NCBI GenBank assembly: GCA_024654525.1 | Contig: JANLHI010000013.1 | Span: 18,036 to 82,035 of the forward strand | Source of the DNA: Patescibacteria group bacterium | GTDB taxonomy: Bacteria; Patescibacteriota; Minisyncoccia; UBA6257; 2-01-FULL-56-20 | DNA length: 64,000 nucleotides | Direction: 5' to 3' | In this document: piece by piece, positions 18,780 to 56,182 of the stretch | Numbering within the stretch: the first letter of the stretch is position 1 | Layout of the letters: the number at the start of each line of letters is the position of its first letter | Program-made: the position numbers and the translations under genes | Notes under the pieces: generated by a model | What the model saw: only the letters and a program-made list of their open reading frames with translations | Database searches by the model: none | What the model was told of the DNA's origin: nothing

Positions 18780-21428
18780 ATGCCTCAATTTCATCGTTTT
18801 ACCATTAAAGCCCAAGAAGCTCTTCAGAACGCGCAAGAACTTGCCGCGCGGAATAATCATGGCGAGTTGAAAGTAATTCACCTGCTTTCCGCGTTACTTG
18901 ATGATTCTCAATCATTGGTAGGGCCGGTGCTTACACGTCTTGGGGTAAATCTCGAGAAACTTCACGAACAGCTTAGCCTCGAGTTGGATAAAATTCCAAA
19001 AATGGTTGGCGGTTCAAGCGTGGGGCAGCTCTATCTGTCTCACGAAATCATGAGAGTGCTCGATCAGGCGGCAAAGATAGCTGCGCAACAGAAAGACGAA
19101 TTTGTGTCATGCGAACATCTTCTTCTTGCGGTGTTTGATGTCGCATCATCGGCGAAAGCGACACTGGAACAATTTGGTGCGCGAAAAGACGCGGCATTTC
19201 GGGTACTCGCGCAACTTCGTGGTTCTACACGCGTAACGGACGAGACGCCGGAAAGCAAGTTTCAAGTATTGGAGAAATATGCCATCAATATTACGGAAAA
19301 AGCGCGTATGCGCGAGCTTGATCCGGTAATAGGACGAGGAGAGGAATTGCGCCGTGTGATGCAGGTTCTTTCGCGACGTACCAAAAATAATCCCGTGCTT
19401 ATTGGTGAGCCGGGCGTGGGAAAAACCGCAATCGTAGAAGGGCTTGCACAGCGCATTGTACAGGGAGATGTTCCTGAGCCTTTGAAGGGGAAAGAAATTC
19501 TTATGCTTGATCTTGGTGCGCTTATTGCAGGAACAAAATTCCGCGGAGAGTTTGAGGACCGGCTTAAAGCATTTATGAAAGAAATAAAGAATGCGAGCGG
19601 ACGACTCATCCTCTTTATTGACGAGATTCATACCATTGTGGGTGCGGGAGCTGCCGAAGGAGCGGTAGATGCGTCTAATCTTCTCAAGCCCTCGCTTGCG
19701 CGCGGAGAACTTCATGCGATCGGAGCGACAACAATTCGGGAATACCAGCGATATATAGAGAAAGATTCCGCGCTCGAGCGGAGATTCCAGCCGATCATTG
19801 TGGAAGAGCCGACTATTGAAGATAGCATCGCGATTTTGCGAGGGCTTAAGGAGAAATATGAAATCCATCACGGTCTTCGCATTAGCGATGAGGCAATTGT
19901 AGAAGCGGTCAATCTTTCGGCGCGGTATATCACCGACCGTTTTTTACCCGACAAGGCGGTGGATTTGATTGATGAGGCGGCTGCGGCACGTCGTCTTGAA
20001 TCCGAAAGTTTACCGAAAGAGATTGATACGGTGAGAAGGGAATTAACGCGTTTAGAAATAGAGAGACAGGCATTGGCGCGCGAGCCAAAGAGCGCATCTC
20101 GTCTTAAAGAGATTGATGCTTCGCTTAAGGAGTTCAAAGAAAAGAATGACGAACTTTCGGGAAGATGGCATACGGAAAAAATTAAGTTTGAAACTTTGCA
20201 CGAACTTCGCCGCAAGATAGACACGCTTAAAAAAGATGCGGATATCGCGGAGCGCGAGGGTAATCTTGAGCGGGTTGCGCAGATTATGTATGGCGAATTA
20301 CCGCAGGCGGAAAAAGATTATATGTTGTTTGAAAAGAAGCATTTTGGAACAGGGAAGAAAAATAAGAAAAAAACAGAGGGAGAAGACGAGGGATTTCTTA
20401 AAGAATCAGTGGATAAAGAGGATGTGGCGGCGGTGGTGGCAGTATGGACCGGAGTTCCTATTACTCGCGTCTTGGAATCCGAAAGCGCAAAACTTACTCG
20501 AATTGAAGAGGTGCTTGAAAAACGCGTAGTGGGGCAACGGGATGCGATTACTGCGGTGGCAAACGCACTTCGTCGCGCACGTGCGGGACTCTCCGACGAG
20601 AACCGTCCGCTTGGTTCGTTTATGTTTTTGGGACCCACGGGAGTGGGGAAGACCGAGCTTGCAAGAACACTTGCGGAATTTATGTTTAATGACGAAAAAG
20701 CTCTTGTGAGAATCGATATGTCCGAATACATGGAAAGGCATACGGTAAGTCGACTTATCGGTTCTCCTCCCGGATATGTAGGGCATGAAGATGGAGGTCA
20801 ACTTACGGAAATAGTAAGACACCGGCCGTACAGCCTTATTCTTTTTGATGAAATAGAAAAAGCTCACCCGGAAGTATTCAATGTGTTGCTTCAGGTGCTT
20901 GATAACGGTAGGTTGACCGATGCGAAGGGGAAGCGGGTCAACTTCAAGAATGCCATTATCATTATGACTTCGAATGTCGGAAGCGATCATTTGCGTGCAA
21001 TGGCATCTTTGGGATTCGCATTGGAGGATGGTGTTGCGGCACGCGTCACTGAAGAATCGGAATATAAGAACAAAGTAATGGTAGCGCTTAAGGAAAATTT
21101 TCGCCCCGAGTTTCTTAACCGTATTGATGAGACTATTATTTTTAACCCACTTGGTAAAAATGACATCTCAAAAATAGTCGATATTCAAATCAGTCTTTTG
21201 GAGAGAAGACTTGCGGCCAGTCATATCGGGATTCGAGTGGACAGTGCCGCGAGGCAGTATATTGCCAAAGAGGGATTTAGCGCGGAATTTGGAGCGCGTC
21301 CTTTGAAGAGGCTTGTACAGAAAGTGATTCTCGATAAACTTGCGGATAAAATTATCAGAGGAGAGATAAAGGATGGTGACAAAGTTAAAATCAATTTCAA
21401 ATCAAATTCCCTGGTGGTTAGCGTGTAG
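18780..21428 (+). CDS. clpB: chaperone ClpB
   Basis: 882 aa. Two AAA+ modules (GEPGVGKT and GPTGVGKT), a middle coiled-coil domain and Clp N-domain repeats. Confidence 0.95.
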   Translation: MPQFHRFTIKAQEALQNAQELAARNNHGELKVIHLLSALLDDSQSLVGPVLTRLGVNLEKLHEQLSLELDKIPKMVGGSSVGQLYLSHEIMRVLDQAAKIAAQQKDEFVSCEHLLLAVFDVASSAKATLEQFGARKDAAFRVLAQLRGSTRVTDETPESKFQVLEKYAINITEKARMRELDPVIGRGEELRRVMQVLSRRTKNNPVLIGEPGVGKTAIVEGLAQRIVQGDVPEPLKGKEILMLDLGALIAGTKFRGEFEDRLKAFMKEIKNASGRLILFIDEIHTIVGAGAAEGAVDASNLLKPSLARGELHAIGATTIREYQRYIEKDSALERRFQPIIVEEPTIEDSIAILRGLKEKYEIHHGLRISDEAIVEAVNLSARYITDRFLPDKAVDLIDEAAAARRLESESLPKEIDTVRRELTRLEIERQALAREPKSASRLKEIDASLKEFKEKNDELSGRWHTEKIKFETLHELRRKIDTLKKDADIAEREGNLERVAQIMYGELPQAEKDYMLFEKKHFGTGKKNKKKTEGEDEGFLKESVDKEDVAAVVAVWTGVPITRVLESESAKLTRIEEVLEKRVVGQRDAITAVANALRRARAGLSDENRPLGSFMFLGPTGVGKTELARTLAEFMFNDEKALVRIDMSEYMERHTVSRLIGSPPGYVGHEDGGQLTEIVRHRPYSLILFDEIEKAHPEVFNVLLQVLDNGRLTDAKGKRVNFKNAIIIMTSNVGSDHLRAMASLGFALEDGVAARVTEESEYKNKVMVALKENFRPEFLNRIDETIIFNPLGKNDISKIVDIQISLLERRLAASHIGIRVDSAARQYIAKEGFSAEFGARPLKRLVQKVILDKLADKIIRGEIKDGDKVKINFKSNSLVVSV

Positions 21429-37294: not shown

Positions 37295-37404
37295 GTCGAT
37301 ATTAGTATATCGCGCGAATCGCAATCGTAAAAAAATGAAAAGAGTATTGCGCGATGTTGCGTGGTAATGTTAGTGCGTGTATCAAGAGGGGGTATAATAG
37401 AAAT

Positions 37405-38493
37405 ATGTGGAATATATTTCACAACCTGCAACAAGCGACATTTCCTCTCTACCTCGGAGTGGATATCGGCACGACTTCCATCAAGGCGGTCGAGGTAAAA
37501 CAAGGGGAGCATCTTCCTTTACTTGTAAATTACGGGATGCTTGAGTTGGGAGGGTATTTAATGCGTGCAAACAATGCGCTTCAAACAAGCACGCTGAAAA
37601 TTTTTGAAGAGGAGGCGGCGGAACTTTTGAAAATTCTTGTGAGAAAAATGAAGCCAAAGGCGCGCGAAGTAATTGCGTCGTTTCCCGCATTTGCGGCGTT
37701 TACCACGGTGTTGGATTTTCCCGTGATGAGTCCCGAGGAACTTAAGAAAACCATTGCGTTTCAGGCAAAGGATTATATTCCCCAGCCTCTCTCCGAAGTG
37801 GCGCTTGATTGGATGAAAGTGGGAGAGTTTAGTGATGCAAAAGGAGTCCGTCACAACCAAATTCTTCTTATCTCGGTACCGCGCGAACAGATTAAACGAT
37901 ATCAAAAGCTATTTACCCTTGCAGGTCTTCGGCTTCGAGCGCTTGAGATAGAAAATTTAAGTTTGGCAAGAATTCTTACCATGGGAGATCCTACTCCGGC
38001 GATGATAGTGGATATCGGGAGTCGATCAACAAGTATTTCATTCGCCACAAAGGGCTCTCTTCATTTTGTGAGTCAAAGTGATTTTGCGGGTTCATCGCTT
38101 ACACAAGCGCTTGCGCAAGGGCTTAATATCAATCCTTTACGCGCGGAAGAGTTGAAAAAGGAAAGGGGTATTGGAAATGCCGGACAGGGTTATGAATTAT
38201 CCACAATCATGTTGCCGTTTTTGGATGCTATAATTAATGAGATTAAAAAGGCACAGTTTAATTACGAGAGTCAGTTTCCCGGCGCCCCAAAGCCGGAACG
38301 TGTGGTACTTGCGGGAGGAGGAGCAAATCTCTCCGGCATTGAAAATTATTTTGAGCGGGATATGGGGTTGCCTATCGTGAAGGCATTACCGCTTGAACGG
38401 TTCGAGTATGCTCCTTCGTTACAACCGATAGCGTCCGAAATTGGGCCGGTGCTTTCCGTAGCGATGGGTCTTGCGATGCGGGAATTTATATAA
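37405..38493 (+). CDS. pilM: type IV pilus assembly protein PilM
   Basis: Actin-like ATPase fold start LGVDIGTTSIKAVEV and PilM-like length. Internal ATG with a GAGGGGG RBS was chosen. Confidence 0.85.
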   Translation: MWNIFHNLQQATFPLYLGVDIGTTSIKAVEVKQGEHLPLLVNYGMLELGGYLMRANNALQTSTLKIFEEEAAELLKILVRKMKPKAREVIASFPAFAAFTTVLDFPVMSPEELKKTIAFQAKDYIPQPLSEVALDWMKVGEFSDAKGVRHNQILLISVPREQIKRYQKLFTLAGLRLRALEIENLSLARILTMGDPTPAMIVDIGSRSTSISFATKGSLHFVSQSDFAGSSLTQALAQGLNINPLRAEELKKERGIGNAGQGYELSTIMLPFLDAIINEIKKAQFNYESQFPGAPKPERVVLAGGGANLSGIENYFERDMGLPIVKALPLERFEYAPSLQPIASEIGPVLSVAMGLAMREFI

Positions 38494-38521
38494 TATCAAG
38501 CTTCCATTTTGAATTTTTATC

Positions 38522-39082
38522 ATGCCACTTCCTCAAAAAGTCATTGACCGTTTAAGCCGCGAACCTTCCGGAACTCCGGGGTGGTCGTCGCAACTTCTTA
38601 TGTTTTCTGGAACGTTGTTCATTATCAGTATTTTGGTATACGGAGGAATCGCAATAGGATTTAAGCCGTATTTTGAATCCAAACAGAGAGATTTGGATAA
38701 AAAGATACAGGTATTCACACAGCAGATACCGCTTGCGGAGCAAGAGAAAATAACTTCGTTCTATTCGCAAATCGTAAATATAAAATCTCTTTTGGATAAT
38801 CATGTGGTGATAACTCCATTTTTTAAGTGGTTTGAAGAACACACGCAACAGAATGTGGTATATCAGAGCCTTTCCGCCACCATAGAATCTGAAAAAATAA
38901 CAATGAGCGGAGTAGCAAAGAGCATCGGGGATGTGGAGGAGCAACTTGCGGTGTTCGAAAAAGATGAAGTTATAGAGAATGTATCGTTCGGTAATATTGC
39001 GGTAAATGACAAAGGAGGGTGGTCGTTCCAAGTATCCATTACATTTACCCCGGGGTTTTTAGAGGGGCATGCAAATAACTAG
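38522..39082 (+). CDS. pilN: PilN-like pilus assembly protein
   Basis: Short cytoplasmic N-terminus, one TM helix, periplasmic domain. Sits immediately after pilM. Confidence 0.55.
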   Translation: MPLPQKVIDRLSREPSGTPGWSSQLLMFSGTLFIISILVYGGIAIGFKPYFESKQRDLDKKIQVFTQQIPLAEQEKITSFYSQIVNIKSLLDNHVVITPFFKWFEEHTQQNVVYQSLSATIESEKITMSGVAKSIGDVEEQLAVFEKDEVIENVSFGNIAVNDKGGWSFQVSITFTPGFLEGHANN

Positions 39083-39097
39083 TACGAGCATAACTCA

Positions 39098-39709
39098 ATG
39101 AAACAAACCACAAAACGCTTTTTAAGCCTTATCGTATCGCTCCTTCTTATTGCGGCGGCATTCGTGGCGTTTCTGAATTTTATTCAACCGGCATACGGAG
39201 AAGTGCAAAAACTTAAAAGTGAAGTAACCACACGCGAAGAGTTTGTAGCGAGTCAGCAGGAAGCGGTGCGCAAGGTACAGGGGTTGATCAGTGCATATAA
39301 TACTCAGGGCGAATTGAGGGGAGTCATTAATCTTACGCTTCCGTTTGAGCAAGATGTAGCAGGAGCGCTTACGCAACTTGCGGGGTTAATTCAAGACTCG
39401 ACATTGGGAGGGAAATCTTTCACAATCTCGACTCCGGATGAAAACGGCGGCGCACCCATAAGAGATTCAAAAGGCAATGAATCCAAGGATTTAGTCTCTC
39501 TACACGATCTTGGCAGGGTTGTGTTCGTGACACGGTTTTCGGGGAGTTATGATAATATAAAAAATTTTTTCGAAAAACTCGAATTAAACGTCAGGGTGTT
39601 TGATATTATTGCGTTATCTATCGCACCTGTGGCATCAGAGAAGCAGACGAAACAAGATATTTATGAGGTCGATTTGCAGGTTATGACGTATTATCAAAAA
39701 GATAAATAA
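39098..39709 (+). CDS. pilO: PilO-like pilus assembly protein
   Basis: TM anchor plus coiled-coil, in the canonical position after pilN. Confidence 0.5.
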   Translation: MKQTTKRFLSLIVSLLLIAAAFVAFLNFIQPAYGEVQKLKSEVTTREEFVASQQEAVRKVQGLISAYNTQGELRGVINLTLPFEQDVAGALTQLAGLIQDSTLGGKSFTISTPDENGGAPIRDSKGNESKDLVSLHDLGRVVFVTRFSGSYDNIKNFFEKLELNVRVFDIIALSIAPVASEKQTKQDIYEVDLQVMTYYQKDK

Positions 39710-39715
39710 TTTTTC

Positions 39716-40012
39716 ATGGCCATTATTATTGAAGAAGAACAGCAACAAAGCACCATCAGTATCGTGAGTATATTTGTATGGGTGGTTATTCTTGGCGTGG
39801 TAGGTGCCTCGGTATATTATCTTTTTTTCAAAAATCCCGATTTCACTTTGTTTGTAACACCCGAGGGTTTTAAAAACACGGAAGCACTTTCAAAAATCAA
39901 TCTGAATCCGGGACAGGTGGTAACCAGCCCCGCGTTTAAAGCATTGCGACAATACACGGCGCTTCCCGAGCCTTTGAATGTCGGAAGAAAAAATCCGTTT
40001 CTTGAGCTATGA
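39716..40012 (+). CDS. small membrane protein in the pilus operon (hypothetical)
   Basis: 98-aa one-TM ORF. Its stop overlaps the pilB start (ATGA). Confidence 0.45.
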   Translation: MAIIIEEEQQQSTISIVSIFVWVVILGVVGASVYYLFFKNPDFTLFVTPEGFKNTEALSKINLNPGQVVTSPAFKALRQYTALPEPLNVGRKNPFLEL

Positions 40013-41733
40013 CGAACGACCGATTGCTCCAAGAGCTTGAGAAAGCAACGCTGATTGATGCGGGTACGGTGATGAAGGTCCAGCGCGAGGCGTTGCTTAC
40101 CGGCAAGTCGGCTGAAGATATTCTTTATACGAAGCGACTTGCGGATGATGTGAAAGTTGCGCAAGTAAAGAGTGCCATTCTTAAGGTTCCTTATCAAAAA
40201 ATAGATTTCAGCAAGTTCGATGAAAAAATGTTGCAGATTATTCCGGAGACCACCGCGCGAACGTACGGAGTGGTTCCTTTGGGGAGGAAGAACGATCTGC
40301 TCATTGTGGGAATGATGAATCCCGACGATCAAAAGGCGCAAGAAGCGCTTAAATTTGTTGCTCGTGCGAATAAGGCAAGTCTTGGTGTCTATGTCATCGC
40401 ATGGGGGGATTGGCAACAGGTACTCCAAAAATATTCACCGTATCGCAACGACATAGATGACGCGGTGAAATCATTACGCATAAAGCCGGAGGGGAAAAGT
40501 AGGAGTGCAATACGGCTTGAAGAAATGGCGGAAACCGATATGGAGAATGCTCCGGTAATACGAGTGGTGGCGCGCACGTTCGAGGAGGCGGTGATACAGC
40601 GAGTATCGGACGTGCATATAGAACCGCAGGAGGATTATCTCCGCGTGCGGTTTCGTATCAACGGAGAATTGCAGGAAACGGCATCGCTTCCCATCGAGCT
40701 TGCACATCCGGTCATATCTCGCATCAAAGTATTGTCGAATCTTAAAATAGATGAAACACGCATACCGCAGGACGGTCGTTTTCGCACGACGGTGCAAAAC
40801 AGAGATATCGATTTTCGAGTTGCGACGTTTCCCACGCCGGCAGGGGAAAAAGTGGCGGTGCGCGTACTTGATCCTTCCGTGGGATTAAAATCATTTGATG
40901 GATTAGGATTGACCGGAAGGAACCTTGCGGTGATAGAAAAAAATCTTTCGCGTCCATATGGGATGATTTTAGTGAGTGGTCCGACCGGGTCTGGGAAAAC
41001 CACTACGCTTTATGCCGTATTGCAACGGTTAAACAGTGACAAGGTGAATATCGTAAGTTTGGAAGACCCTGTTGAATATTTGGTATCAGGCGTAAATCAG
41101 TCTCAAGTACATCCCGAAATAGGATATGATTTTGCATCGGGACTTCGGCAAATTCTTCGGCAAGATCCCGATGTAATTATGGTGGGAGAAATTCGCGACA
41201 GCGAAACCGCCGAGCTTGCGGTGCGTGCGGCGCTTACCGGACACATCGTACTTTCGACATTGCACACAAACAACTCGATAGGTGTGGTATCGCGTCTTAT
41301 GGATATGAAGGTGGAACCGTTCCTTTTGCCGGTATCGGTGAATATTATGCTTTCCCAGCGTTTAGTCGGAGAATTATGTATCGCATGCAAAGTGAGTGAA
41401 CCTGCGTCTCCCGGAGTGGTAAAGGTAATTACCGAAGCGCTTCAGGGACTTCCGGAGGATATTCGAAGTCGGTATCGCGAGCCATATAAAATTTTCCATG
41501 CGCCGGGATGTAATGTGTGTAAGGGAAGGGGAATTACCGGGCGTATTGCGCTCTTTGAAATACTTGAAATGACTGATGCGCTTAAAGAGATTATTACCAC
41601 CTCTCCTTCCATTCAGCGTATTGCAAAGGAGGCAAAGGATCAGGGAATGATAACAATGAGACAGGATGGTGTCATGAAAGCGCTTGAGGGACTTGTGATG
41701 ATTGAAGAGGTGGTGCGAGAAACGGAAGAATAA
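40009..41733 (+). CDS. pilB: type IV pilus assembly ATPase PilB (GspE family)
   Basis: N-terminal GspE-N domains, Walker A GPTGSGKTTT, the tetracysteine motif CIAC...CNVCKGRG and an Asp/His box. Confidence 0.92.
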   Translation: MTNDRLLQELEKATLIDAGTVMKVQREALLTGKSAEDILYTKRLADDVKVAQVKSAILKVPYQKIDFSKFDEKMLQIIPETTARTYGVVPLGRKNDLLIVGMMNPDDQKAQEALKFVARANKASLGVYVIAWGDWQQVLQKYSPYRNDIDDAVKSLRIKPEGKSRSAIRLEEMAETDMENAPVIRVVARTFEEAVIQRVSDVHIEPQEDYLRVRFRINGELQETASLPIELAHPVISRIKVLSNLKIDETRIPQDGRFRTTVQNRDIDFRVATFPTPAGEKVAVRVLDPSVGLKSFDGLGLTGRNLAVIEKNLSRPYGMILVSGPTGSGKTTTLYAVLQRLNSDKVNIVSLEDPVEYLVSGVNQSQVHPEIGYDFASGLRQILRQDPDVIMVGEIRDSETAELAVRAALTGHIVLSTLHTNNSIGVVSRLMDMKVEPFLLPVSVNIMLSQRLVGELCIACKVSEPASPGVVKVITEALQGLPEDIRSRYREPYKIFHAPGCNVCKGRGITGRIALFEILEMTDALKEIITTSPSIQRIAKEAKDQGMITMRQDGVMKALEGLVMIEEVVRETEE

Positions 41734-41826
41734 GACTTGGTTCTTGCGAGTTGCGGGCGCACCGTCATGGTATGGTAGTATTTAATGGTATCAATAAGAA
41801 AAATAAGATTTCGGAGGATTTAAAAA

Positions 41827-42897
41827 ATGGATTATCACGAACAATTAAAAGGACTTCTTGTAGCGGCGGCGAGACAGAACGCTTCGGATCTGCATATTGC
41901 GGTAGGAAGAAGGCCTACGCTTCGCGTTGACGGTGCGCTGGTACCGCTTCAACAAGAACAGATTATGACTCCCGAATCCGCAGAAGGGCTTGTATTCGGA
42001 CTTCTTACGCCGGAACAAAAAGAGCGTTTTATTAAAGAGCGTCAGCTTGACTTCGCCTACAATTTGGAAGATAAAGTACGGTTTCGTGTGAATGTGTATT
42101 ATCAACGCGGGTACGTGGCGGCGGCGCTTCGGGTCATTCCCGGAAGAATTAGTACCATAGAAGAACTTGGGCTTCCCCCTATTCTTCATGACTTTTCAAA
42201 TCTTTCGCAGGGATTCGTGTTGGTGGTAGGTCCCGCGGGACACGGGAAATCCACATCGCTTGCGGCAGTACTCGACGAAGTGAATCATACGCGCGCCGAT
42301 CATATCGTGACCGTTGAAGATCCGATTGAGTATCTCTTTACGCAAGACAAAGCAATCATCTCTCAGCGTGAGGTGGGAAACGATACGCAAACATTCGATG
42401 ACGCGTTGCGTACGGTGCTCCGGCAAGACCCGGATGTCATCATGATAGGAGAGATGCGGGATGCGGCTTCTATTGCCACCGCAATGACTGCGGCGGAAAC
42501 GGGCCACCTTGTATTTTCCACGCTTCACACCAATTCCGCATCGCAGACGATAGATCGGATTATCGACAGCTTTGCGCCGGAACAGCAGGGGCAGGTGGTT
42601 TCCCAGCTCGCCGCTACACTTGTCGCGATTGTGTCCCAACGCCTGTTGCCGCGCATATCGGGCGGAAGAATTCCTGCTGCGGAAATAATGTTGGTCAATC
42701 CGGCGATTCGAAATCTTATTCGGGAGCGGAAAATATATCAGATTGATTTGGTGATTGAAACAAGCTTGCAGGAGGGAATGATTACGTTGAATCGCGCACT
42801 GGCAACATTGGTGAAGAATAAAGAAATATCGCTTGAGAACGCAGAGTTATATTCCATGAATCCGGCGGAGTTAAGAATACTTCTCGAAAGGTTTTAG
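41827..42897 (+). CDS. pilT: twitching-motility retraction ATPase PilT
   Basis: About 356 aa with GPAGHGKSTS Walker A and PilT-like motifs (IMIGEMRD, TLHTNSA). Confidence 0.9.
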   Translation: MDYHEQLKGLLVAAARQNASDLHIAVGRRPTLRVDGALVPLQQEQIMTPESAEGLVFGLLTPEQKERFIKERQLDFAYNLEDKVRFRVNVYYQRGYVAAALRVIPGRISTIEELGLPPILHDFSNLSQGFVLVVGPAGHGKSTSLAAVLDEVNHTRADHIVTVEDPIEYLFTQDKAIISQREVGNDTQTFDDALRTVLRQDPDVIMIGEMRDAASIATAMTAAETGHLVFSTLHTNSASQTIDRIIDSFAPEQQGQVVSQLAATLVAIVSQRLLPRISGGRIPAAEIMLVNPAIRNLIRERKIYQIDLVIETSLQEGMITLNRALATLVKNKEISLENAELYSMNPAELRILLERF

Positions 42898-43007
42898 CGT
42901 AGTGCAAGAAGCGTAGTCGCGAGGATGATTATTTTTTCATACAAAGCAATGTATAGAATGTATGACAACCCCAATGGCGCAATAACCGTAACGTGGTCCC
43001 ACACGGA

Positions 43008-44219
43008 ATGAAATTCCACTATCAAGCAAAAACCAAAGATGGAGAGGATCAGGTGGGGTTTGTAGAAGCTCCGAATCGTGAATCGGCAACCGCTATTTTA
43101 TCGGGACACGGGCTTTTTATTTTAAGTATCGAAGCAACGAAGAAGGAAGCGTGGTATGAAAGAATCGGAGGAATTTTCACAGGGGTGAAAAGAAAAGATA
43201 AGGTTATTTTCTTTCGCCAACTTTCCACACTTCTTGAGGCGCGTATTCCTTTGAATGCGGCGTTGCGTAGTTTGCAGGCGCAAACGGTAAACCCCACATT
43301 GAAAGAGGCTGTGTTTGAGGTTGCGGAAAGTATTGATTCGGGACTTTCTTTCTCGCAGGCGCTTGAGCGTAGGCAAGGCGTTTTCTCCGAGTTCTATGTG
43401 GCGATGGTGCGTGCGGCGGAGACCACCGGCAAACTCGACGAAATTATAGATTTTCTTGCAGACTATACAGAAAAAGAAGATTTGATTGCGCGGAAAACCA
43501 TGGGGGCGATGGCGTATCCGGCACTTGTCGTGGGGATGTTCGGTGTTGTAGCGCTTGTGCTGGTGGTGTTTGTATTTCCTCAAATCCGCCCCGTATTCGA
43601 GCAGTCCGGTATTGATTTGCCGTTTACTACGCGAATTCTTCTCGGGAGCGGAGAATTTTTGGGAGCATGGTGGCCATTGGTGCTTATTGGGGTAATATTC
43701 GGCGGGATTGTGGGTATTGATTACTTCCGCTCGAAAGAAGGGCGTGCGGTGCTCGACGATGCAAAGGTGCGTTTCCCGCTGATACATAGAATTTACTTGC
43801 CACTGGTGCTTACGCGGTTTTCGTATACCACCTCGCTTCTTTTAAAAGGAGGTATTCCTGTTGCGCAAGCGCTTGAGATTGTAAGTCATGTGGTGGCAAA
43901 TGCGTTATATCAAGAATTATTGCATGAGGTATCGGAATCGGTGCGGGGAGGAGAGACTATTTCCCAAGCAATTTCGCGGTATCCCGACTACTTTCCGAAA
44001 CTGGTACCGCAAATGCTTGCGGTGGGAGAACAGAGCGGGCAGTTAAGTCAGATTTTCAGTCGTGTAGCGACATTTTATGAACGTGAAGCGGATGATGTGA
44101 TTAATAATATCGTAAATCTCATACAACCGCTTCTTATCGCGGTAGTGGGTATCTTTGTGGGGCTTCTCTTCGCCTCTATCTTGCTTCCGCTCTATCAACT
44201 CACTTCGTCTTTCGGATAG
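43008..44219 (+). CDS. pilC: type IV pilus platform protein PilC (GspF family)
   Basis: Two GspF-like repeats, each followed by TM helices. An upstream in-frame GTG start at 42993 is possible. Confidence 0.85.
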   Translation: MKFHYQAKTKDGEDQVGFVEAPNRESATAILSGHGLFILSIEATKKEAWYERIGGIFTGVKRKDKVIFFRQLSTLLEARIPLNAALRSLQAQTVNPTLKEAVFEVAESIDSGLSFSQALERRQGVFSEFYVAMVRAAETTGKLDEIIDFLADYTEKEDLIARKTMGAMAYPALVVGMFGVVALVLVVFVFPQIRPVFEQSGIDLPFTTRILLGSGEFLGAWWPLVLIGVIFGGIVGIDYFRSKEGRAVLDDAKVRFPLIHRIYLPLVLTRFSYTTSLLLKGGIPVAQALEIVSHVVANALYQELLHEVSESVRGGETISQAISRYPDYFPKLVPQMLAVGEQSGQLSQIFSRVATFYEREADDVINNIVNLIQPLLIAVVGIFVGLLFASILLPLYQLTSSFG

Positions 44220-44273
44220 AAATGGCAGTGTGATATACTTATCCACAAGTATGGAAAGGTCGGAAATGATATA

Positions 44274-44789
44274 ATGGAAAACATGAAAACATATTCGAGA
44301 GGCGGGTTTACACTTATCGAAATATTGATTGTAGTCGCTATAATAGGTATCTTGGCTTCCGTCATTTTAGTGGGTCTTGGTCCGACACAGCGTGCGGGGC
44401 GTGATGCCAGGCGTGTTGCGGATTTAAAGAGCGTACAGACTGGATTGGAGCTGTATTTCCAGAAGAACGGTGAGTATCCCGCAGCTGCAAGCGGGTGGAC
44501 TGCCTTGTCCCAGACCCTTGAAGGCGCGGGCGTAGGGGCAGGGAAAATTCCCAATGATCCGAATTATAACAGTGCCGTAGGAACGAGTCCCATTTACCAC
44601 TATTCTCGTCCTGCATACAATGCCTATTATTTAGGCGCGTTGCTTGAGGATCCGAATAACAAGGCGATGAAGTCTTCATTGTCGGGAACATCTGATGGAG
44701 GAAATCCTCCTGTAATAACCGGAGTGTCGATTGATGGCACAGCATGCGGAGGTAGCGGAGGGTTTTATTGCGTAGGAAACGGAAATTAG
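44274..44789 (+). CDS. type IV (major) pilin with prepilin N-methylation motif
   Basis: Class III signal RGGFTLIEILIVVAIIGILA in the translation. Confidence 0.8.
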   Translation: MENMKTYSRGGFTLIEILIVVAIIGILASVILVGLGPTQRAGRDARRVADLKSVQTGLELYFQKNGEYPAAASGWTALSQTLEGAGVGAGKIPNDPNYNSAVGTSPIYHYSRPAYNAYYLGALLEDPNNKAMKSSLSGTSDGGNPPVITGVSIDGTACGGSGGFYCVGNGN

Positions 44790-44918
44790 TTTTAAAAGAG
44801 AAAGTGGCAAAAGCCGATGGTTTTCACCGTCGGTTTTTGTTTTTCACAGTGACTTTTACATTCTTGAATATGTGTGAGGGCTTTCTCCCTTTTAAAGAGA
44901 AAGGTAGAATGAGTCAAT

Positions 44919-45779
44919 ATGGTGTCGATTATCCTTTTTGTTTTAGGACTGTCTTTCGGAAGTTTTATAAATGTGATTGCGCTTCGTTATAATCCGGATC
45001 GATTTTTGTTTTCGCGCACCGCGCTTGGCGGACGTTCTCGATGTGCTCATTGTAAAAAAACGCTTCGATGGTTCGAACTTGTACCGCTCATAAGTTTCTT
45101 GTTCCAGCGGGGACGGTGCCGTTCATGTCACACGCGACTTTCCCCACAATATATGTTCGCTGAAATCATTGCGGGCGCCATATTTGTACTCGTTCCCATT
45201 CGTATTGCATCGTTATACCTCCTACCTCCTACCTCCTACTATCTTCTTGTTACTGTTTGGATTTTTGTGTTGCTGATTCTGCTTCTCCTCTCTCTTATCG
45301 ATGTCCGTTTTCGTATTATTCCCGATGAGTGCAACGTGGCGCTTATCGGAGCGGGAATGGCAATCGCAATTCTTACACCGGTAATGAATGGAACGGGCGG
45401 TTCGTTTCTTGGAGCGTATGGAATTTTACTTCTCGCGCAATCGCACATATGGGTTAATAAACTTTTAGGGTTTCTTGCGGGGGCGTTCGGGCTTGGGATA
45501 CTTGCGGTGGCAACTCGAGGGAAAGGAATGGGCATGGGGGATATAAAACTTGCGGCGGCGCTTGGTGTGGTTTTCGGATGGCCTGATATTGCGGTATTGC
45601 TTGGTATCGCGTTCGTCCTTGGGGCGATTGCCGGAATACTTGAGATAGCGACTGCAAAAAATACGCTTAATGGGACTCTTCCTTTCGGACCGTTTATTGC
45701 GCTTGGCGCTACAATGCTTTTCTTTGGCGGATCGGAGCTTGTGAAGTGGTACTTCGGTGTATTTGCGGGATGGTGGTGA
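44919..45779 (+). CDS. pilD: prepilin peptidase PilD (A24 family)
   Basis: N-terminal C..C...C..C zinc site. Conserved Asp-containing TM regions. Contains an LPPTSYYLL insert encoded by a CCTACCT heptamer tract. Confidence 0.85.
   Translation: MVSIILFVLGLSFGSFINVIALRYNPDRFLFSRTALGGRSRCAHCKKTLRWFELVPLISFLFQRGRCRSCHTRLSPQYMFAEIIAGAIFVLVPIRIASLYLLPPTSYYLLVTVWIFVLLILLLLSLIDVRFRIIPDECNVALIGAGMAIAILTPVMNGTGGSFLGAYGILLLAQSHIWVNKLLGFLAGAFGLGILAVATRGKGMGMGDIKLAAALGVVFGWPDIAVLLGIAFVLGAIAGILEIATAKNTLNGTLPFGPFIALGATMLFFGGSELVKWYFGVFAGWW
45217..45243 (+). repeat. CCTACCT heptamer tandem tract inside pilD
   Basis: tatacct cctacct cctacct cctacta. The related tract GGTAGGT x3 lies at 59838-59862 inside murD in the same coding orientation. 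Confidence 0.6.
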
Positions 45780-45820
45780 TTCGGTGCGGGATGCACGCGT
45801 AGTGGGGTATAATAAAGCAA

Positions 45821-46468
45821 ATGAGTTTGTCTACCATCACTCGTTGCATATCGCGTCTTCGGAAACGCTCGGGGTTTTCTCTTGTCGAGTCGTTAGTGAT
45901 TATTTCCATCGTGGGGTTGCTTTCTGCGTATACGATTTCTTATTCGAATGTAAGTCGAAGACAAACCGAGATGTATGTGTCGAAAGCCCAGATAGGGCAA
46001 TTTATCCTCAAGGCAAAATCACTTACACTAAATACGCGTACTCGCGGGTCGTTGGGGCGTCCGTGTGGATATGGAGTGGACGTAAATGAAGCGCTACCTC
46101 CTTCCCGATCTTCACTCACGCTTTTTTCGTATTCCGTACCTACCGCAGAGGTATCGCAAGGGCTTGGGGGGTCGTGTCTTAAGGATGGCGTATTAAGGAA
46201 AGAGCAAGTGGAGATAGGAAGAAACGGTCTCGAAAAGAATACGGTTGAGTCGTTTGAATTGCCCCAAGAAGTGGAATTTTTTAACAGTGCAACCCGAGTG
46301 GGAATGGTAAAGCGCATATTTTTCCTCGCACCCGATCCCCAGACATTCATTTGGGTGGATGGAAGTGCAGACCCCGGCGCGCTTTCTGGAAGAATATATC
46401 TTATCACGGAAGACGAGCGTGCGTCGTCATCAATATTTGTTACGTCCGCAGGTGAAGTAAGTTTCTGA
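45821..46468 (+). CDS. minor pilin / pseudopilin
   Basis: Prepilin-type N-terminus KRSGFSLVESLVIISIVGLL. Confidence 0.6.
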   Translation: MSLSTITRCISRLRKRSGFSLVESLVIISIVGLLSAYTISYSNVSRRQTEMYVSKAQIGQFILKAKSLTLNTRTRGSLGRPCGYGVDVNEALPPSRSSLTLFSYSVPTAEVSQGLGGSCLKDGVLRKEQVEIGRNGLEKNTVESFELPQEVEFFNSATRVGMVKRIFFLAPDPQTFIWVDGSADPGALSGRIYLITEDERASSSIFVTSAGEVSF

Positions 46469-46476
46469 ATAACCGT

Positions 46477-47055
46477 ATGAGGATATACAGACATATGCGC
46501 ATACTGCAGGCACAAAAAGGATTTTTTATCATCGAGGCAATGATTTCTTTGAGTTTACTCACGGTGGGATTTTTAGGGTTACTTACCTTGCTTGCGAGTT
46601 CATTGGGACTTAATCGTGTAGTAACGGATACCTATATTGCGAATTATCTTGCCATAGAGGGGGTAGAGATTATAAAAAATGTAATAGATGCGAATGTTGC
46701 GCACGGGCAGAATTTTAACAAAAATTGCATATGGAGTACGGGGTTTAATGCCGAGAAAACATACGAAATTGATGCGCAGATACCATCGGTGACCCCGAGT
46801 GATTCCGGTTGCCCCGGAGAAGTGCTGGTGGGGGATATTATGATTGGTGCGGGACGTCCACTAAAATTTGATGTGTCTTCCGGTGAATATGAGTATGATA
46901 CGGGGACAAACTCCGTGTTTCGAAGGCGAGTAACGGTGTCACCGGTAAACGATAATGAATTACGTGTTAACTCTGTGGTGGCATGGACCACGCGCGGAGG
47001 AGGAAATTTTACGGTAAATGTCGAAGACCACTTGTATAACTGGTCAAGACCATGA
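46477..47055 (+). CDS. minor pilin / pseudopilin
   Basis: Prepilin-type N-terminus QKGFFIIEAMISLSLL. Confidence 0.6.
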   Translation: MRIYRHMRILQAQKGFFIIEAMISLSLLTVGFLGLLTLLASSLGLNRVVTDTYIANYLAIEGVEIIKNVIDANVAHGQNFNKNCIWSTGFNAEKTYEIDAQIPSVTPSDSGCPGEVLVGDIMIGAGRPLKFDVSSGEYEYDTGTNSVFRRRVTVSPVNDNELRVNSVVAWTTRGGGNFTVNVEDHLYNWSRP

Positions 47056-48116
47056 ATATAAAAAATTCCAAATTGCGGCGTGAGGGGTATACGCTTATTG
47101 AGCTTTTGGTGGCGATAGGGCTCTTTGGGGTGGTAACGGCGATTGCGGTGGGGGGATTCGCTCGTGCGCTTCGCACGCAACGGCAGGCACAACTTCTTCT
47201 TGTATCGAACGGAAACGTAAGTGAGGCGATAGAGGGGATTGCACGTGAACTGCGTGTGGCAAGAGATTTTCAAACCGATGTCGGTGGTTTTGGCAGTACC
47301 TGTTTCGGTGTCGTGGATGGAGCGCCGGCTATTATCCCCTTACAAGGCAATGCGCTCCGATTTAAAAATCCGAAAAATGAAGATGTGATATATCGTGCGT
47401 GTAATAATCGCCTTGAGCGTGGATTGACCGCGGGGGGCAAATTTGCACTCACTGTGTTTAAGCAAGTTTCATCAGGATCCGTAAAGGTTCAAAATCTGGA
47501 ATTTTCTATTTCCGGAAACAAACCGGGTTCCGATGTTTCCAGCGTAAGCAATCAGCCCGATGGATATCCTCCTCGGATTACCATAAAGATTAGCGTGGCT
47601 CCCAATTCGGATGATCCGGGTATCTCGGGGAGCGCGATGAGTCTTCAAACAACCGTAAGCGCACGGCTTATTGATGATCAGCCACCCGCACTCCGAGTAC
47701 GAAAATTTGTACAAAATACCGAAGGAACTGCAGAGCCGAAAGATTTCATGATGGCGGTTGTGGGGAATAAAGTGAGGCCATGCACTCGCTGGGAGGATCT
47801 TACGGATGCTCAAAGGGGAAATATTCCCCGTGAGAGTCTTCTTGTGGAACCGGGCACGGTAGAGGGGAATCCCGACGGTGGCGCGTGCCGTGATATGATT
47901 GCTCCCCTAATGGACAATGTGTGTTATTTCAGAGGATCCGAAGAAGGAACGATTGTAACGCTTGCAGAAGGGGCGTTTTGCGTGGATGAATTGCCAAATT
48001 CTTCGTACGAAAAGTTTTTTGATGATGATTGCAGGAATTCCGAGGGACATGGTTCAGTGCAGGTGGGCGAGACAAAAACATGTTCTCTTATTAATGTAGG
48101 GAAGACAACAAATTAG
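47052..48116 (+). CDS. minor pilin-like protein (PilW/FimT-like)
   Basis: Prepilin-type N-terminus REGYTLIELLVAIGLFGVV. Start overlaps the previous stop (ATGA). Confidence 0.6.
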   Translation: MNIKNSKLRREGYTLIELLVAIGLFGVVTAIAVGGFARALRTQRQAQLLLVSNGNVSEAIEGIARELRVARDFQTDVGGFGSTCFGVVDGAPAIIPLQGNALRFKNPKNEDVIYRACNNRLERGLTAGGKFALTVFKQVSSGSVKVQNLEFSISGNKPGSDVSSVSNQPDGYPPRITIKISVAPNSDDPGISGSAMSLQTTVSARLIDDQPPALRVRKFVQNTEGTAEPKDFMMAVVGNKVRPCTRWEDLTDAQRGNIPRESLLVEPGTVEGNPDGGACRDMIAPLMDNVCYFRGSEEGTIVTLAEGAFCVDELPNSSYEKFFDDDCRNSEGHGSVQVGETKTCSLINVGKTTN

Positions 48117-48119
48117 AGT

Positions 48120-48560
48120 ATGAATATGAGAGAAAAAATGGCACATGTAAAAGTTCGCACACGAGAAGGACAGGTGATGATGCTCTCTATTCTTGCATTG
48201 GGAGGGATATTTCTTGCGGCAACCACCGTTGCGGGAATGTTGATGGTGGCGCAAATACGGCAGTCGGCGGATTTTCAATCTTCAACCCGGGCAATCGCTG
48301 CGGCGGACACGGGAATTGAATGGGCGCTCTATAGCAGAACACACCCCGATCCAAACGATGCACTTCCGATGCCATCACTCCTTAGCAATGGAGCTACGGT
48401 GGACGTGCGTTGTTTCAATGAGTTGCAGCAAGAAATTTTAGAAAGTGACGGAGGATGCAGTAACGCGTCGACGACCATTATCCAATCAAGCGGGACTTTT
48501 TTGGATGCAAGTCGTATTTTCCAAGTGCAGGACGTAAATCCGTTTATTCCGGGTTTTTAG
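48120..48560 (+). CDS. minor pilin-like protein (PilX-like)
   Basis: Hydrophobic N-terminus GQVMMLSILALGGIFLAAT. Last gene of the pilin block. Confidence 0.45.
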   Translation: MNMREKMAHVKVRTREGQVMMLSILALGGIFLAATTVAGMLMVAQIRQSADFQSSTRAIAAADTGIEWALYSRTHPDPNDALPMPSLLSNGATVDVRCFNELQQEILESDGGCSNASTTIIQSSGTFLDASRIFQVQDVNPFIPGF

Positions 48561-52834: not shown

Positions 52835-53467
52835 ATGAGGAATATGGTTCATTCGAATCTTACAAAAGACGAAATTCGCATATTCAAACGCCTCACCACA
52901 CCCGCGAAAATCCAGGACTTTCTCGATACTATTCCCATCAACTTTGAGAAGCATGGAGAAACTCTTTTTTCACCGCGGTGTGTATTTCGTGAATACAAAG
53001 CGCATTGTTTTGAAGGGGCATTGTGTGCCGCTGCGGTGTTGTGGTTCCATGGCGAGCGTCCGTTGATTATGAATCTCGAAAGTGCAGAGGGAGATGATGA
53101 CCATGTTATCGCGCTCTTTAAGCGTTATGGATGTTGGGGCGCGATTACTAAAACCAATCATGCCGTCTTGCGCTTCCGCGAGCCGGTATATAAGACCGTA
53201 CGGGAACTGGTGATGTCTTTTTTTCACGAATATTTTTTGGACGACGGAAAAAAGACTTTGCGGATGTACTCCGATCCACTGGATCTCTCCAAGAGGCGTT
53301 TTAAAGGATGGGTTACCTCCGAGGAGGGTCTTTGGGGCATCAACGAGGCATTTGATGAGGGACTGTATAATCCGCTTATCAATGCAATGCAGATAAAAAA
53401 TCTTCGCGTTGCGGATTCAATAGAGATACGGGCAGGAAAGTTGGTGATGTGGAAGAAGGGGAGATAG
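52835..53467 (+). CDS. hypothetical protein with a Cys...His pair (possible papain-fold enzyme)
   Basis: HCFEGALCAAAV ... DDHVIAL resembles a Cys/His catalytic dyad. No family could be assigned confidently. Confidence 0.4.
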   Translation: MRNMVHSNLTKDEIRIFKRLTTPAKIQDFLDTIPINFEKHGETLFSPRCVFREYKAHCFEGALCAAAVLWFHGERPLIMNLESAEGDDDHVIALFKRYGCWGAITKTNHAVLRFREPVYKTVRELVMSFFHEYFLDDGKKTLRMYSDPLDLSKRRFKGWVTSEEGLWGINEAFDEGLYNPLINAMQIKNLRVADSIEIRAGKLVMWKKGR

Positions 53468-53505: not shown

Positions 53506-53772
53506 ATGTCAGAACGCATTACCGCTATCACCGTCACCTGTAAATGCGGGCAAAAACTTTTTAAGTATCAAAAAGCGGGAACGGGAAGATTGATTAAATG
53601 TTTCATTGCTCGTATTCTTGCGGATTACACCGGGATTCCTGAAAAAATAGGACTTGGTATTGCGGTGCTTTGTCCCGCATGCGGGGGGCGTGTAGGCACC
53701 ACGCAGCGGATTCACGGAAGCGTGGCGATAAAATTGAATCAAGGGCAGATTCAGGGAGTGCGAATTGGGTGA
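53506..53772 (+). CDS. small zinc-ribbon protein (hypothetical)
   Basis: C.C near the N-terminus and CPACGG later give a four-Cys zinc-ribbon arrangement. Confidence 0.4.
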   Translation: MSERITAITVTCKCGQKLFKYQKAGTGRLIKCFIARILADYTGIPEKIGLGIAVLCPACGGRVGTTQRIHGSVAIKLNQGQIQGVRIG

Positions 53773-54343: not shown

Positions 54344-56182
54344 ATGTTTGTATGCCAAAACTGTAAAAATTCATTTTCCATTACTTCCGAAGACACCGAT
54401 TTCTATAAAAAAATAGGAGTACCACCGCCAACATTTTGTTGGCTATGTCGTGCGCAGCGGAGGATGGCATTCAGAAATGAAAGGATGCTTTACAAAAGAA
54501 AGAGCGATTTTTCAGGGAAAGAAATTTTTTCGATGTATGCACCCGCCTCTACTACTGTTGCGGCGGGCGAGTCCGATTCGGGATATAAAGTATATGAAAA
54601 AGAGGTGTGGGTATCGGATCAGTGGGATCCTCTCCAATATGGAAAGAAGTATGATTTCAGTCGCCCTTTTTTTGAGCAGTTTAACGAGTTGCTTCACGAA
54701 GTTCCGCTTAAAAACCTTAATGTGGTAAACGGTGTCCGGAGTGATTATAGTAATAACTTTACCGAGCCGAAGAATTGTTATTTATGTTTCAACGGCAACA
54801 AATCGGAGGATTGCATGTATAGTCACGGGCTTACGCAATGCAGTGATTGTGTTGATGTATCGCACCTTTCAAAGTGTGAAAGTTGTTATGAAAGCTTTTG
54901 GCTTACGGGGTGTTCCCGCAATGTGGGGTGTGAGAATTGTGAAAACTCTTTCAATCTCTGGTTTTGCAAGAACTGCGTGGGGTGTTCCGACTGTGTAGGA
55001 TGCGTGGGGCTTCGTAAAAAGCAATATTATATTTTCAACCGCCCTTATTCAAAAGAGGAGTATCAAGGAAAATTTAAGGAATTGAATCTCGGTTCGTGGG
55101 AGTCATACCAAAAGATTAAAACGCAGGCAGAGGAATTGCACCTTAATTTTCCAAACAAATTTATTGATGGATTGAATAATGCGCGCGTGAGCGGTAATTA
55201 TGTGGATCATTCAAAAAATGTTCATGATTCCTTCTTTGTACGTGAAGGAGAAAATCTGAAGTTTTGCCAATATCTTCAGGAGCTTCCCGGGTGTAAGGAT
55301 TGTTATGACTGGTCGGTGTGGGGTGACAATGGACAGTTGATGTATGAGTGTCATGCGTGCGGATTAGGAACGCAGAATGTTCGGTTTTCCCTTTTTGTGC
55401 AAGAGGATTCACATGACATCGAATATTCCATGATATGCAGTGGCTCGCATCACTTGTTTGGGTGCGTGGGACTCCGCAAGAAGGAATATTGCATTTTTAA
55501 CACGCAATACCGCAAAGAAGAGTGGGAAGCGCTTGTGCCAAAAATCCGCGAACACATGAATGCAATGCCATATATCGACAAAGCAGGGTGCATATATAAA
55601 TATGGTGAATTTTTCCCTGCGGAACTTGCACCTGTGGCATATGAAGAATCCATGGCGCAGGAGTATTTTCCCTTGAACGAGGAGGAGATTAAGAAAAATG
55701 GGTATGTGTGGCGCGACTTCGGAAATCGGAATTACACTCCTACGCTTACGTTTGAAAAAATCCCTGACAATATTACCGATGTTCCCGATTCTATTACCGA
55801 TGAGGTTATTTCGTGCGCTCATGCAGGAAAGAAGTGCGGGCAATTATGCGTGAGTGCATTCCGCATTACCGTTGATGAGCTTACATTTCACAAAAAATTG
55901 GGAATACCGTTGCCGCGCATGTGCCACAATTGCCGGACGTTTGAGCGTTTGAAACGTCGCACGGGGTTGCAGCTTTTTGAGCGGAGATGTGAGTGCGCCG
56001 GAAGCGTATCAAATAACGGATTATATACAAATACCGTGGTACATTCTCACGGCGAAAATCAGTGTGCTACACGATTTGAGACTGCGTACGGACCAGACCC
56101 GAATTCTGCCGAAAGCTCCCGCGAGGCAAGGCGGAAAGAGATACTATATTGCGAAGAGTGTTATCACGCGGAAGTAGCATAA
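54344..56182 (+). CDS. cysteine-rich, internally duplicated cytoplasmic protein of unknown function
   Basis: 612 aa with more than 50 Cys and no signal peptide. N- and C-terminal zinc-ribbon-like segments are related (FYKKIGVPPPTFCWLCRAQRR vs FHKKLGIPLPRMCHNCRTFER). Two GCVGLRKK(Q/E)Y.IFN..Y.KEE blocks. Central CxxC-8-CxxC ladder. Confidence 0.65.
   Translation: MFVCQNCKNSFSITSEDTDFYKKIGVPPPTFCWLCRAQRRMAFRNERMLYKRKSDFSGKEIFSMYAPASTTVAAGESDSGYKVYEKEVWVSDQWDPLQYGKKYDFSRPFFEQFNELLHEVPLKNLNVVNGVRSDYSNNFTEPKNCYLCFNGNKSEDCMYSHGLTQCSDCVDVSHLSKCESCYESFWLTGCSRNVGCENCENSFNLWFCKNCVGCSDCVGCVGLRKKQYYIFNRPYSKEEYQGKFKELNLGSWESYQKIKTQAEELHLNFPNKFIDGLNNARVSGNYVDHSKNVHDSFFVREGENLKFCQYLQELPGCKDCYDWSVWGDNGQLMYECHACGLGTQNVRFSLFVQEDSHDIEYSMICSGSHHLFGCVGLRKKEYCIFNTQYRKEEWEALVPKIREHMNAMPYIDKAGCIYKYGEFFPAELAPVAYEESMAQEYFPLNEEEIKKNGYVWRDFGNRNYTPTLTFEKIPDNITDVPDSITDEVISCAHAGKKCGQLCVSAFRITVDELTFHKKLGIPLPRMCHNCRTFERLKRRTGLQLFERRCECAGSVSNNGLYTNTVVHSHGENQCATRFETAYGPDPNSAESSREARRKEILYCEECYHAEVA

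Follow-up and report, generated by a model that had tools for sequence, protein, structure and literature searches.

Positions 54344..56182 (+ strand) of the DNA studied here, a stretch of 64,000 nucleotides from contig JANLHI010000013.1 of a Patescibacteria group bacterium (hereafter the window), hold a complete gene in the list of open reading frames (ORFs), which encodes 612 amino acids (aa) plus stop; the initial annotation, made from the letters alone, had given this placement and length correctly. The product belongs to a very large protein family, which seems to be undescribed and which we label F, and, within it, to the subfamily with the widest spread. We propose, as a tentative reading to which we give somewhat less than an even chance, that this protein and its relatives are zinc-stapled scaffolds or adaptors, or else clients, which would work with VirD4-like ATPases (labelled A) under housekeeping-level constraint. 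The evidence comes from family searches, from the cysteine sites and repeats within the protein and from gene arrays in other genomes, where family members and ATPases are found side by side.

Family members and their spread

The 612-aa product is 100% identical to protein NUV53_01125 ('hypothetical protein', Patescibacteria group bacterium), which derives from a metagenome-assembled genome (MAG) at NCBI. A search of 5.8 billion proteins, in which 8000 candidates were scored, returned at least 6590 homologues, and every source name among them was 'hypothetical protein' from Patescibacteria MAGs. The best 120 were mostly 570-612 aa long and aligned across 99-100% of the query. With a profile, 1.84 billion cluster representatives (50% identity) gave 4670 matches at E ≤ 1e-3, of which 1986 also passed E ≤ 1e-30, and a scan of one genome per species gave 564 confirmed loci, 80 of which were fetched. 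Two divergent paralogue subfamilies were queried separately and brought 2109 and 5175 further matches, all of them hypothetical and with the best 120 mostly full length. The initial annotation had named a fusion of two genes, for example by a frameshift, as what might undo its description. The chance of such an artefact of gene calling or assembly is negligible, since independent assemblies yield more than 100 homologues that align end to end, over 99-100% of the length; the thousands of matches to the paralogue subfamilies speak against it as well, and so does the AlphaFold2 (AF2) model of the full-length protein, which is one compact unit with a predicted template modelling score (pTM) of 0.86.

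The fetched loci belonged to Staskawicz-, Nomura-, Lipton-, Wolfe-, Jorgensen- and Sungiibacteria, to Paceibacterota, to generic Patescibacteria and to unclassified 'bacterium' MAGs. Staskawiczbacteria sit within the Parcubacteria group in the NCBI taxonomy, and the family so far appears only in Parcubacteria-type Patescibacteria. It was also possible to see two family copies on a contig of 2.6 kb (JAPLUX010000038.1, locus L048) binned as an Aenigmatarchaeota archaeon; this label is probably a binning error and not an archaeal occurrence.

The initial annotation could not place the protein in a known family, and for the core this was borne out: Pfam, NCBIfam, PADLOC, the PDB sequences and Foldseek with the AF2 model against PDB and BFVD all gave no match. 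Profile searches of the PDB gave no significant match, whether for the whole protein or for the finger alone, and the finger did not match solved structures by sequence. PADLOC gave no match for the query or for two paralogues, and the neighbouring ATPase of the arrays described below matched only the mad8 and HerA models. No family match was obtained in phage genomes (tblastn) or in viral contigs, and one PHROG of no assigned function weakly matched aa 140-220 (E 1.9e-5). A literature search found no description of the family.

Duplicated fingers, proposed solenoid modules and cysteine sites

The protein has 38 cysteines, which is 6.2% against 0.85% in the 48 further long ORFs that the window holds (about 7-fold). 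It has 14 CxxC motifs, where shuffled sequences of the same composition have 2.3 ± 1.4, and the cysteine enrichment is far above chance. The initial annotation had counted too many cysteines (more than 50), and the motifs that it quoted were all located, at aa 4-53, 491-539, 166-222, 219-240 and 373-394. On these motifs it had based two claims, that a segment of the N-terminus is echoed near the C-terminus and that two internal blocks with GCVGLRKK are repeated, and both turned out to be real duplications. By Smith-Waterman alignment with 1000 shuffles, aa 1-60 against 486-545 gave z = 17.6, and aa 136-250 against 296-405, which cover the central modules, gave z = 15.1. By profile-profile alignment (hhalign), the N finger and the C finger were related with 99.2% probability (E 2.2e-19) and module 1 and module 2 with 99.9% (E 5.9e-37 over 99 columns), while unrelated pairs taken as negative controls gave 0.3% and 2.1%. 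Self-BLASTP of the 612-aa protein returned no repeats. As judged from these alignments, the architecture is built through internal duplication.

The N-terminal treble-clef zinc finger (aa 1-52; 54344..54499, + strand) was predicted from cysteine conservation and Pfam zf_Tbcl. It is formed by C4-x2-C7 and C32-x2-C35, followed by the basic helix CRAQRRMAFRNER, and has a net charge of +6. Its copy, the predicted C-terminal treble-clef finger (aa 488-545; 55805..55978, + strand), was delimited by hhalign and cysteine conservation and has an expanded first knuckle (C491, C498, C502), then C527-x2-C530, and a net charge of +8; in some paralogues the first knuckle of the C finger is a plain CxxC. The median charge in the family is +5 for each finger and the core is mildly acidic. 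When the N-terminal 52 aa were scanned alone, zf_Tbcl (PF13451) was found with 24.2 bits (E 3.3e-5) at a curated cutoff of 24, and the full-length Pfam scan detected only this domain, at aa 2-41, with 17.2 bits and thus below the cutoff, so the zinc-finger-like ends claimed from the start are upheld, with a marginal match to zf_Tbcl. Some paralogues carry a precomputed PF13451 match, and among 23 fingers scanned in isolation, from the N- or the C-terminus, 19 match zf_Tbcl at E < 1. Taking into account the scores of these isolated fingers, the ends of the protein would be divergent 'probable treble clef' fingers. They resemble zf_Tbcl and zf_Tbcl_2 (PF23477) in having two CxxC knuckles about 24 residues apart and then a basic helix, and they differ from zf_Tbcl in the expanded knuckle of the C-terminal copy; zf_Tbcl is itself a domain without known function, and it spans about 100 of the 612 residues. 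After the C finger comes the putative zinc-ribbon tail (aa 546-612; 55979..56179, + strand; assigned by cysteine conservation), which contains C549 (and C551), C574 and C603-x2-C606, ends in the near-invariant Y-C-E-x-C-Y-x-x-E-V and is unrelated to the fingers (hhalign 0.3%).

The cysteines that look like metal sites were separated from the others by means of a family alignment of 179 full-length members with 33-73% identity to the query. C4, C7, C32, C35, C491, C549, C574, C603 and C606 were present in 179/179, C502 and C527 in 171 each and C530 in 167 (93-96%). This conservation gives good support to three predicted Cys4 sites, one in the N finger, one in the C finger and one in the C-terminal ribbon. 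At positions 54, 57, 85 and 88 four cysteines were found in 67 sequences, no cysteine in 66 and C54 alone in 45, and the presence of cysteine among 57, 85 and 88 was correlated with phi 0.99-1.0. This set behaves all-or-none, as a genuine optional Cys4 site should, and the query would have lost it. The putative fourth site was lost as a unit in other subfamilies, that of the query included, and could serve to mark subfamilies. No other block of the family is as conserved as the tail (block conservation 0.87 and 0.76), where Y602, Y607 and E610 occur in at least 97% of the sequences. Conservation was highest in the N finger, in both GCVGLRKK-x-Y-x-IFN module ends, in the YGEFFP region and above all in the last 30 residues, and the solenoid faces and the connector were the most variable blocks.

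Between the fingers, the chain begins with a linker and an aromatic-rich cap (aa 53-135; 54500..54748, + strand; from the family alignment), in which W89, D92, W94, F109, Q112 and P121 are conserved and where the remnant of the optional fourth site reads S54, S57, E85 and V88 in the query. Solenoid module 1 (aa 136-236; 54749..55051, + strand), defined by profile autocorrelation, coevolution and cysteine swaps, is made of repeats of about 12 residues in which every third position is Cys, Ser or small aliphatic, and it terminates in GCVGLRKKQYYIFN. The helical connector (aa 237-280; 55052..55183, + strand), with AF2 helices at 237-247 and 252-266, starts with YSKEEY and is among the least conserved stretches of the family (block conservation 0.39). 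Solenoid module 2 (aa 281-390; 55184..55513, + strand), a copy of module 1 according to hhalign and coevolution, terminates in GCVGLRKKEYCIFN. A helix and an acidic alpha/beta region follow (aa 391-487; 55514..55804, + strand; from AF2 and the alignment), with a conserved Y-x-YGEFFP motif (Y420, G421, E422, P425), a net charge of -10 and a predicted local distance difference test score (pLDDT) of 83-98 across aa 391-490.

The geometry of the modules was examined by two independent measures. The profile autocorrelation of aa 140-236 showed peaks at multiples of 3, the highest at lags 12 and 24. Mean-field coevolution was calculated with 641 sequences (effective number 472) and was read only as separation-averaged coupling over low-gap columns, the top individual pairs being indel artefacts; the mean coupling of module 1 peaked sharply at a separation of 12 (0.75, against 0.17 at 18), and that of module 2 at separations of 11-13. 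Considering that both measures agree on 12, a solenoid in which one turn takes about 12 residues is favoured, and it is strongly implied that the middle of the protein consists of two duplicated narrow solenoids. A 12-residue coil does not have the width for an ordinary hydrophobic core, which would explain why Cys, Ser and small aliphatic residues are preferred. The full-length AF2 model had a pLDDT of 83, and a core-only model on a more diverse alignment was poorer (73).

The full-length model gave only weak PDB matches in Foldseek, nearly all of them with hexapeptide-repeat proteins (E 0.035-5), and left-handed beta-helix proteins such as LpxA, GlmU, CysE and gamma-carbonic anhydrase are the only PDB proteins listed for it; the top BFVD match was likewise a 'Hexapeptide repeat' protein, and the family sequence shares with left-handed beta-helices a sub-period of 3/6 residues. 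It is very improbable, however, that the protein is a divergent enzyme of this class, for example an acyltransferase or a gamma-carbonic anhydrase. Nothing passed E 1e-3 in the PDB, the template modelling (TM) scores were ≤0.2 with root mean square deviations of about 10-19 Å, and the matches were gone with the core-only model, which had no match in the PDB. Pfam Hexapep was absent at E up to 10 in the query and up to 0.1 in 67 orthologues, no invariant His or other catalytic set was found, and no catalytic motif could be recognised in the 612-aa protein. The period is 12 in profile and coevolution, which speaks against the 18-residue coil hinted at by the weak matches. The only high-probability structural matches were BFVD proteins with a 'putative zinc-ribbon domain' (0.99 and 0.77; E 0.048 and 2.3).

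A narrow beta-helix of 12 residues per turn with a cysteine ladder is present in the antifreeze protein of the beetle Tenebrio molitor. The likeness to the family is one of geometry only, in that the chain repeats about every 12 residues and that the positions which face inward at regular intervals are Cys or Ser. In contrast to the antifreeze protein, the family protein has no signal peptide and no Thr-x-Thr ice-binding face, its i/i+6 positions are mostly Cys facing Leu, Val or Ile, and Foldseek gave no match to an antifreeze protein.

In this central region the initial annotation had described a regular CxxC-(8)-CxxC ladder, and from it a metal-binding repeat scaffold. The ladder exists in the present sequence, but in most of its pairs the family does not conserve the first Cys. 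Among the 179 sequences the ladder cysteines were singly replaced by Ser, Leu, Val, Ile, Ala or Thr, every combination was seen, and their presence was uncorrelated (phi ≤ 0.44), unlike the all-or-none behaviour of 54/57/85/88, which served as control. The densest motif, C211-x2-C214-x2-C217-x2-C220, was complete in only 106/179, with single losses to Leu, Val or Ser, often to the first two, and its equivalents in module 2 read C/S/L/C. These swaps point to buried core positions, and on the alignment the central ladder is best read as the core packing of a narrow coil and not as a chain of metal sites. The notion of a metal-binding scaffold is thus retained for the internal duplication and the three terminal Cys4 sites and is not supported for the ladder. 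A ladder that binds zinc or iron ions in a row, so as to store or buffer them or to transfer electrons, would agree with the many cysteines and CxxC motifs of the query, with C211, C214, C217 and C220 being all Cys in 57 of 67 close orthologues and with a CutA1 gene that adjoins the arrays in 5 loci; given the uncorrelated losses and the module 2 residues, we consider such a metal ladder quite improbable. No ferredoxin-type family matched the full-length protein or its orthologues either, and the DnaJ CXXCXGXG model matched 1 of 23 isolated fingers (E 0.011). A striking cysteine pattern, then, need not signal metal binding, and conservation patterns within the alignment can separate Cys4 sites from core packing.

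With respect to its location, the product has no hydrophobic segment in a Kyte-Doolittle scan (highest 19-residue mean 1.14), and its first zinc knuckle begins as early as residue 4, in agreement with the claim that a signal peptide is lacking. A membrane segment was found in 0/205 family members. Since signal peptide and membrane segment are both lacking, the product is probably cytoplasmic, as predicted from its sequence.

Gene arrays and VirD4-like ATPases

Family copies are commonly arranged in arrays. There were 2-8 copies in 54 of 83 loci, always on the same strand, with a median gap of 23 nucleotides between copies and overlaps in 30%, and a near-complete contig of 738 kb carried at least 9, of which 8 were in one array. 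For 99% of the copies the nearest relative was in another genome and not in the same array (median best identity 60% to another locus and 45% within the locus), which makes the paralogues ancient. Between the same pairs of genomes, the best identity was 0.57 for the family, 0.61 for cysteinyl-tRNA synthetase (CysRS) and 0.38-0.41 for FtsW, MurG, PGK and sigma factor. These values indicate strong purifying selection and not arms-race evolution.

The only recurrent partner of the arrays was an ATPase with TrwB_AAD_bind, TraG-D_C, T4SS-DNA_transf and DUF87 above the Pfam cutoffs. Its gene stood directly beside 31 of the 113 family runs, and a family member was at most two genes away from 52 of 63 ATPase genes; typical layouts were dnaK..A-F-F-F-A-dnaJ, ftsW-F..F-murG and secF-secF-sigma-A-A-F..F-pgk. 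Family members are tightly linked to, and co-oriented with, relatives of the type IV coupling proteins (VirD4/TrwB/TraG) in many genomes. Most array ATPases, unlike the coupling proteins, have no membrane anchor, and published work places such genes far from virB4 (PMC12102498). The same 2025 survey, which covered 2,918 Patescibacteria genomes, counted 5,713 VirD4-like genes, of which just 148 had virB4 nearby, and its authors left the role open, a different function being one that 'cannot be ruled out' (PMC12102498). The array-adjacent ATPases end in a CxxC-x17-CxxC finger in 20 of 63 cases (for example L024:7772-9973 and L036:6124-8127), with the consensus C-S-x-C-G-K-x-T-T-V-P-F-K-P-x-x-G-R-P-V-Y-C-K-D-C, and the ATPase at the end of locus L001 has a precomputed Pfam annotation as zf_Tbcl_2. 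A finger shared between family and ATPases was considered and dropped as a loose parallel, because hidden Markov models (HMMs) of the family fingers and tail miss the ATPases. A relaxase-like role was rejected, there being no invariant His in the 179-sequence alignment.

Two small genes were also observed in the arrays. One encodes a membrane protein of 180 aa (c7; L038:1680-2222 and 6 other loci), located between two ATPase genes at array heads, with an N-terminal membrane segment, an R-N-Q-L-V-H motif resembling the HEPN R-x4-H signature and no Pfam match. The other is a CutA1 'divalent ion tolerance' gene of 102 aa (L036:15525-15833 and 4 other loci; Pfam E 3.5e-13), which within arrays always directly adjoins an ATPase or a family member and is a possible metal link.

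According to the proposed reading, the three Cys4 sites, that is, the N finger, the duplicated C finger and the C-terminal ribbon, would staple the ends of the protein. The basic fingers and the invariant tail may dock all paralogues onto one common partner, either the ATPase or a polyanion, for instance nucleic acid, and the variable solenoid faces would confer a recognition specific to each paralogue. The proteins would in this way serve as adaptors or clients of the VirD4-like ATPases.

The paralogues could otherwise build a filament, ring or cage among themselves, independently of the neighbouring ATPases. An array can hold as many as 8 ancient paralogues, and each of these has orthologues of its own in other genomes, a pattern also known in multi-subunit complexes built from paralogues, and the arrays lie within division and chaperone gene blocks (ftsW-murG and dnaK-dnaJ). 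We regard such an assembly as unlikely: the copies per locus vary from 1 to 8, the lineage of the window has a lone copy, and Foldseek gave no structural match to a bactofilin-type or other filament-forming solenoid.

Considering that the family adjoins VirD4-like ATPases, its members could also be substrates that these ATPases deliver outside, as a surface structure or as host-directed effectors. The extracellular cysteines would then form disulfides that stiffen the narrow helix, as in the beetle antifreeze protein, whose extracellular helix the 12-residue Cys-rich coil resembles. Export would be in line with the N-terminal membrane-like segment of 16 of 57 ATPases, similar to that of classical coupling proteins, and with the position of c7 between ATPases in 7 loci; any export of a protein that lacks a signal peptide needs a dedicated route. 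Type IV secretion signals are usually C-terminal, and it is the extreme C-terminus that is most conserved in the family. Even so, we find export, the foremost of the rival readings, rather unlikely. Conservation at the level of an aminoacyl-tRNA synthetase and ancient paralogues are unlike what host-facing effectors or surface proteins show, and across the coil Cys mostly opposes Leu, Val or Ile, which leaves few partners with which a disulfide could form. Fingers with an invariant Cys4 set and a basic helix, as predicted here, are typical of intracellular proteins. Besides, 41 of the 57 ATPases are soluble, and nearly all Patescibacteria VirD4-like genes are far from virB4 (PMC12102498). In comparison with the substrates or adaptors that type IV coupling proteins recognise, no relaxase or known effector domain is present, and the window gene has no ATPase neighbour.

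Several observations weigh against the adaptor or client reading itself. The link between family and ATPases is drawn from gene neighbourhood, in loci that were chosen by similarity to the query, and the HMMs of the family fingers and tail do not match the neighbouring ATPases. The N-terminal membrane-like segment of 16 of the 57 ATPases fits export no less than it fits a cytoplasmic role. The solenoid geometry comes from AF2 models of moderate confidence in that region (pLDDT 65-75; 65-71 in module 1). In the query's own subfamily, the retention of C211 to C220 in close orthologues means that module 1 may hold one extra metal site there. The 64-kb window contains a single family copy and no VirD4-like ATPase, and the closest orthologues (64-71% identity, L003-L005) are likewise solitary; in the 28 loci with an orthologue of at least 50% identity, another family copy is adjacent in 14 and an ATPase lies within three genes in 8. 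The ATPase linkage is thus a property of the family and is not seen at the locus of the window. Since the window copy is encoded alone, any ATPase partner would lie elsewhere in that genome.

The window locus and the meaning of the family

Upstream of the gene lies one for a small P-loop kinase, and downstream of it hsp20 in convergent orientation; ligA and gatA/gatC are found close by. A promoter and terminator scan around the gene gave signals not above those of shuffles. Two genes upstream, just before the kinase, there is an ORF of 88 aa (window 53506-53772, +) with CxC and CxxC motifs (TCKCGQ ... CPACGG), a possible zinc ribbon without Pfam match. An ORF of 210 aa (window 52835-53467, +) is a clear homologue of CPR-C4 (PDB 7ob6 and 7pjo; E 5e-60), a protease conserved in the Candidate Phyla Radiation whose structure has been solved, and there is no Pfam model for it. 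Farther away, the window holds ClpB (18780-21428) and a type IV pilus gene cluster (37354-48560, +), in which Pfam identified PilM, PilB (T2SSE plus MshEN), PilT, PilC (T2SSF), a prepilin peptidase and one pilin in which the N-methylation motif is present; the cluster has further pilin-like ORFs besides those scanned. GC skew was positive in nearly every 2 kb bin of the window (1-64000) and most long ORFs were on the + strand, so that the whole window is apparently on one replication arm.

The family is of interest because many tiny Parcubacteria genomes keep several copies of 1.7 kb each, conserved to about the level of CysRS. Going one step beyond the adaptor or client reading, the family and the 'orphan' VirD4-like ATPases of Parcubacteria may together constitute an undescribed ATP-driven machine under housekeeping-level constraint, with the paralogous zinc-capped solenoids as its cargo or specificity adaptors; this we put forward as a doubtful but possible extension. 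If true, the machine could act in export or in the handling of nucleic acids, the intracellular solenoid folds would gain a new one, and the thousands of VirD4-like genes that lie far from virB4 would be explained. The frequent pairing of family and ATPase is a testable lead on the role of the VirD4-like genes, approximately two per Patescibacteria genome according to the survey, where these lie away from a type IV secretion system (PMC12102498).

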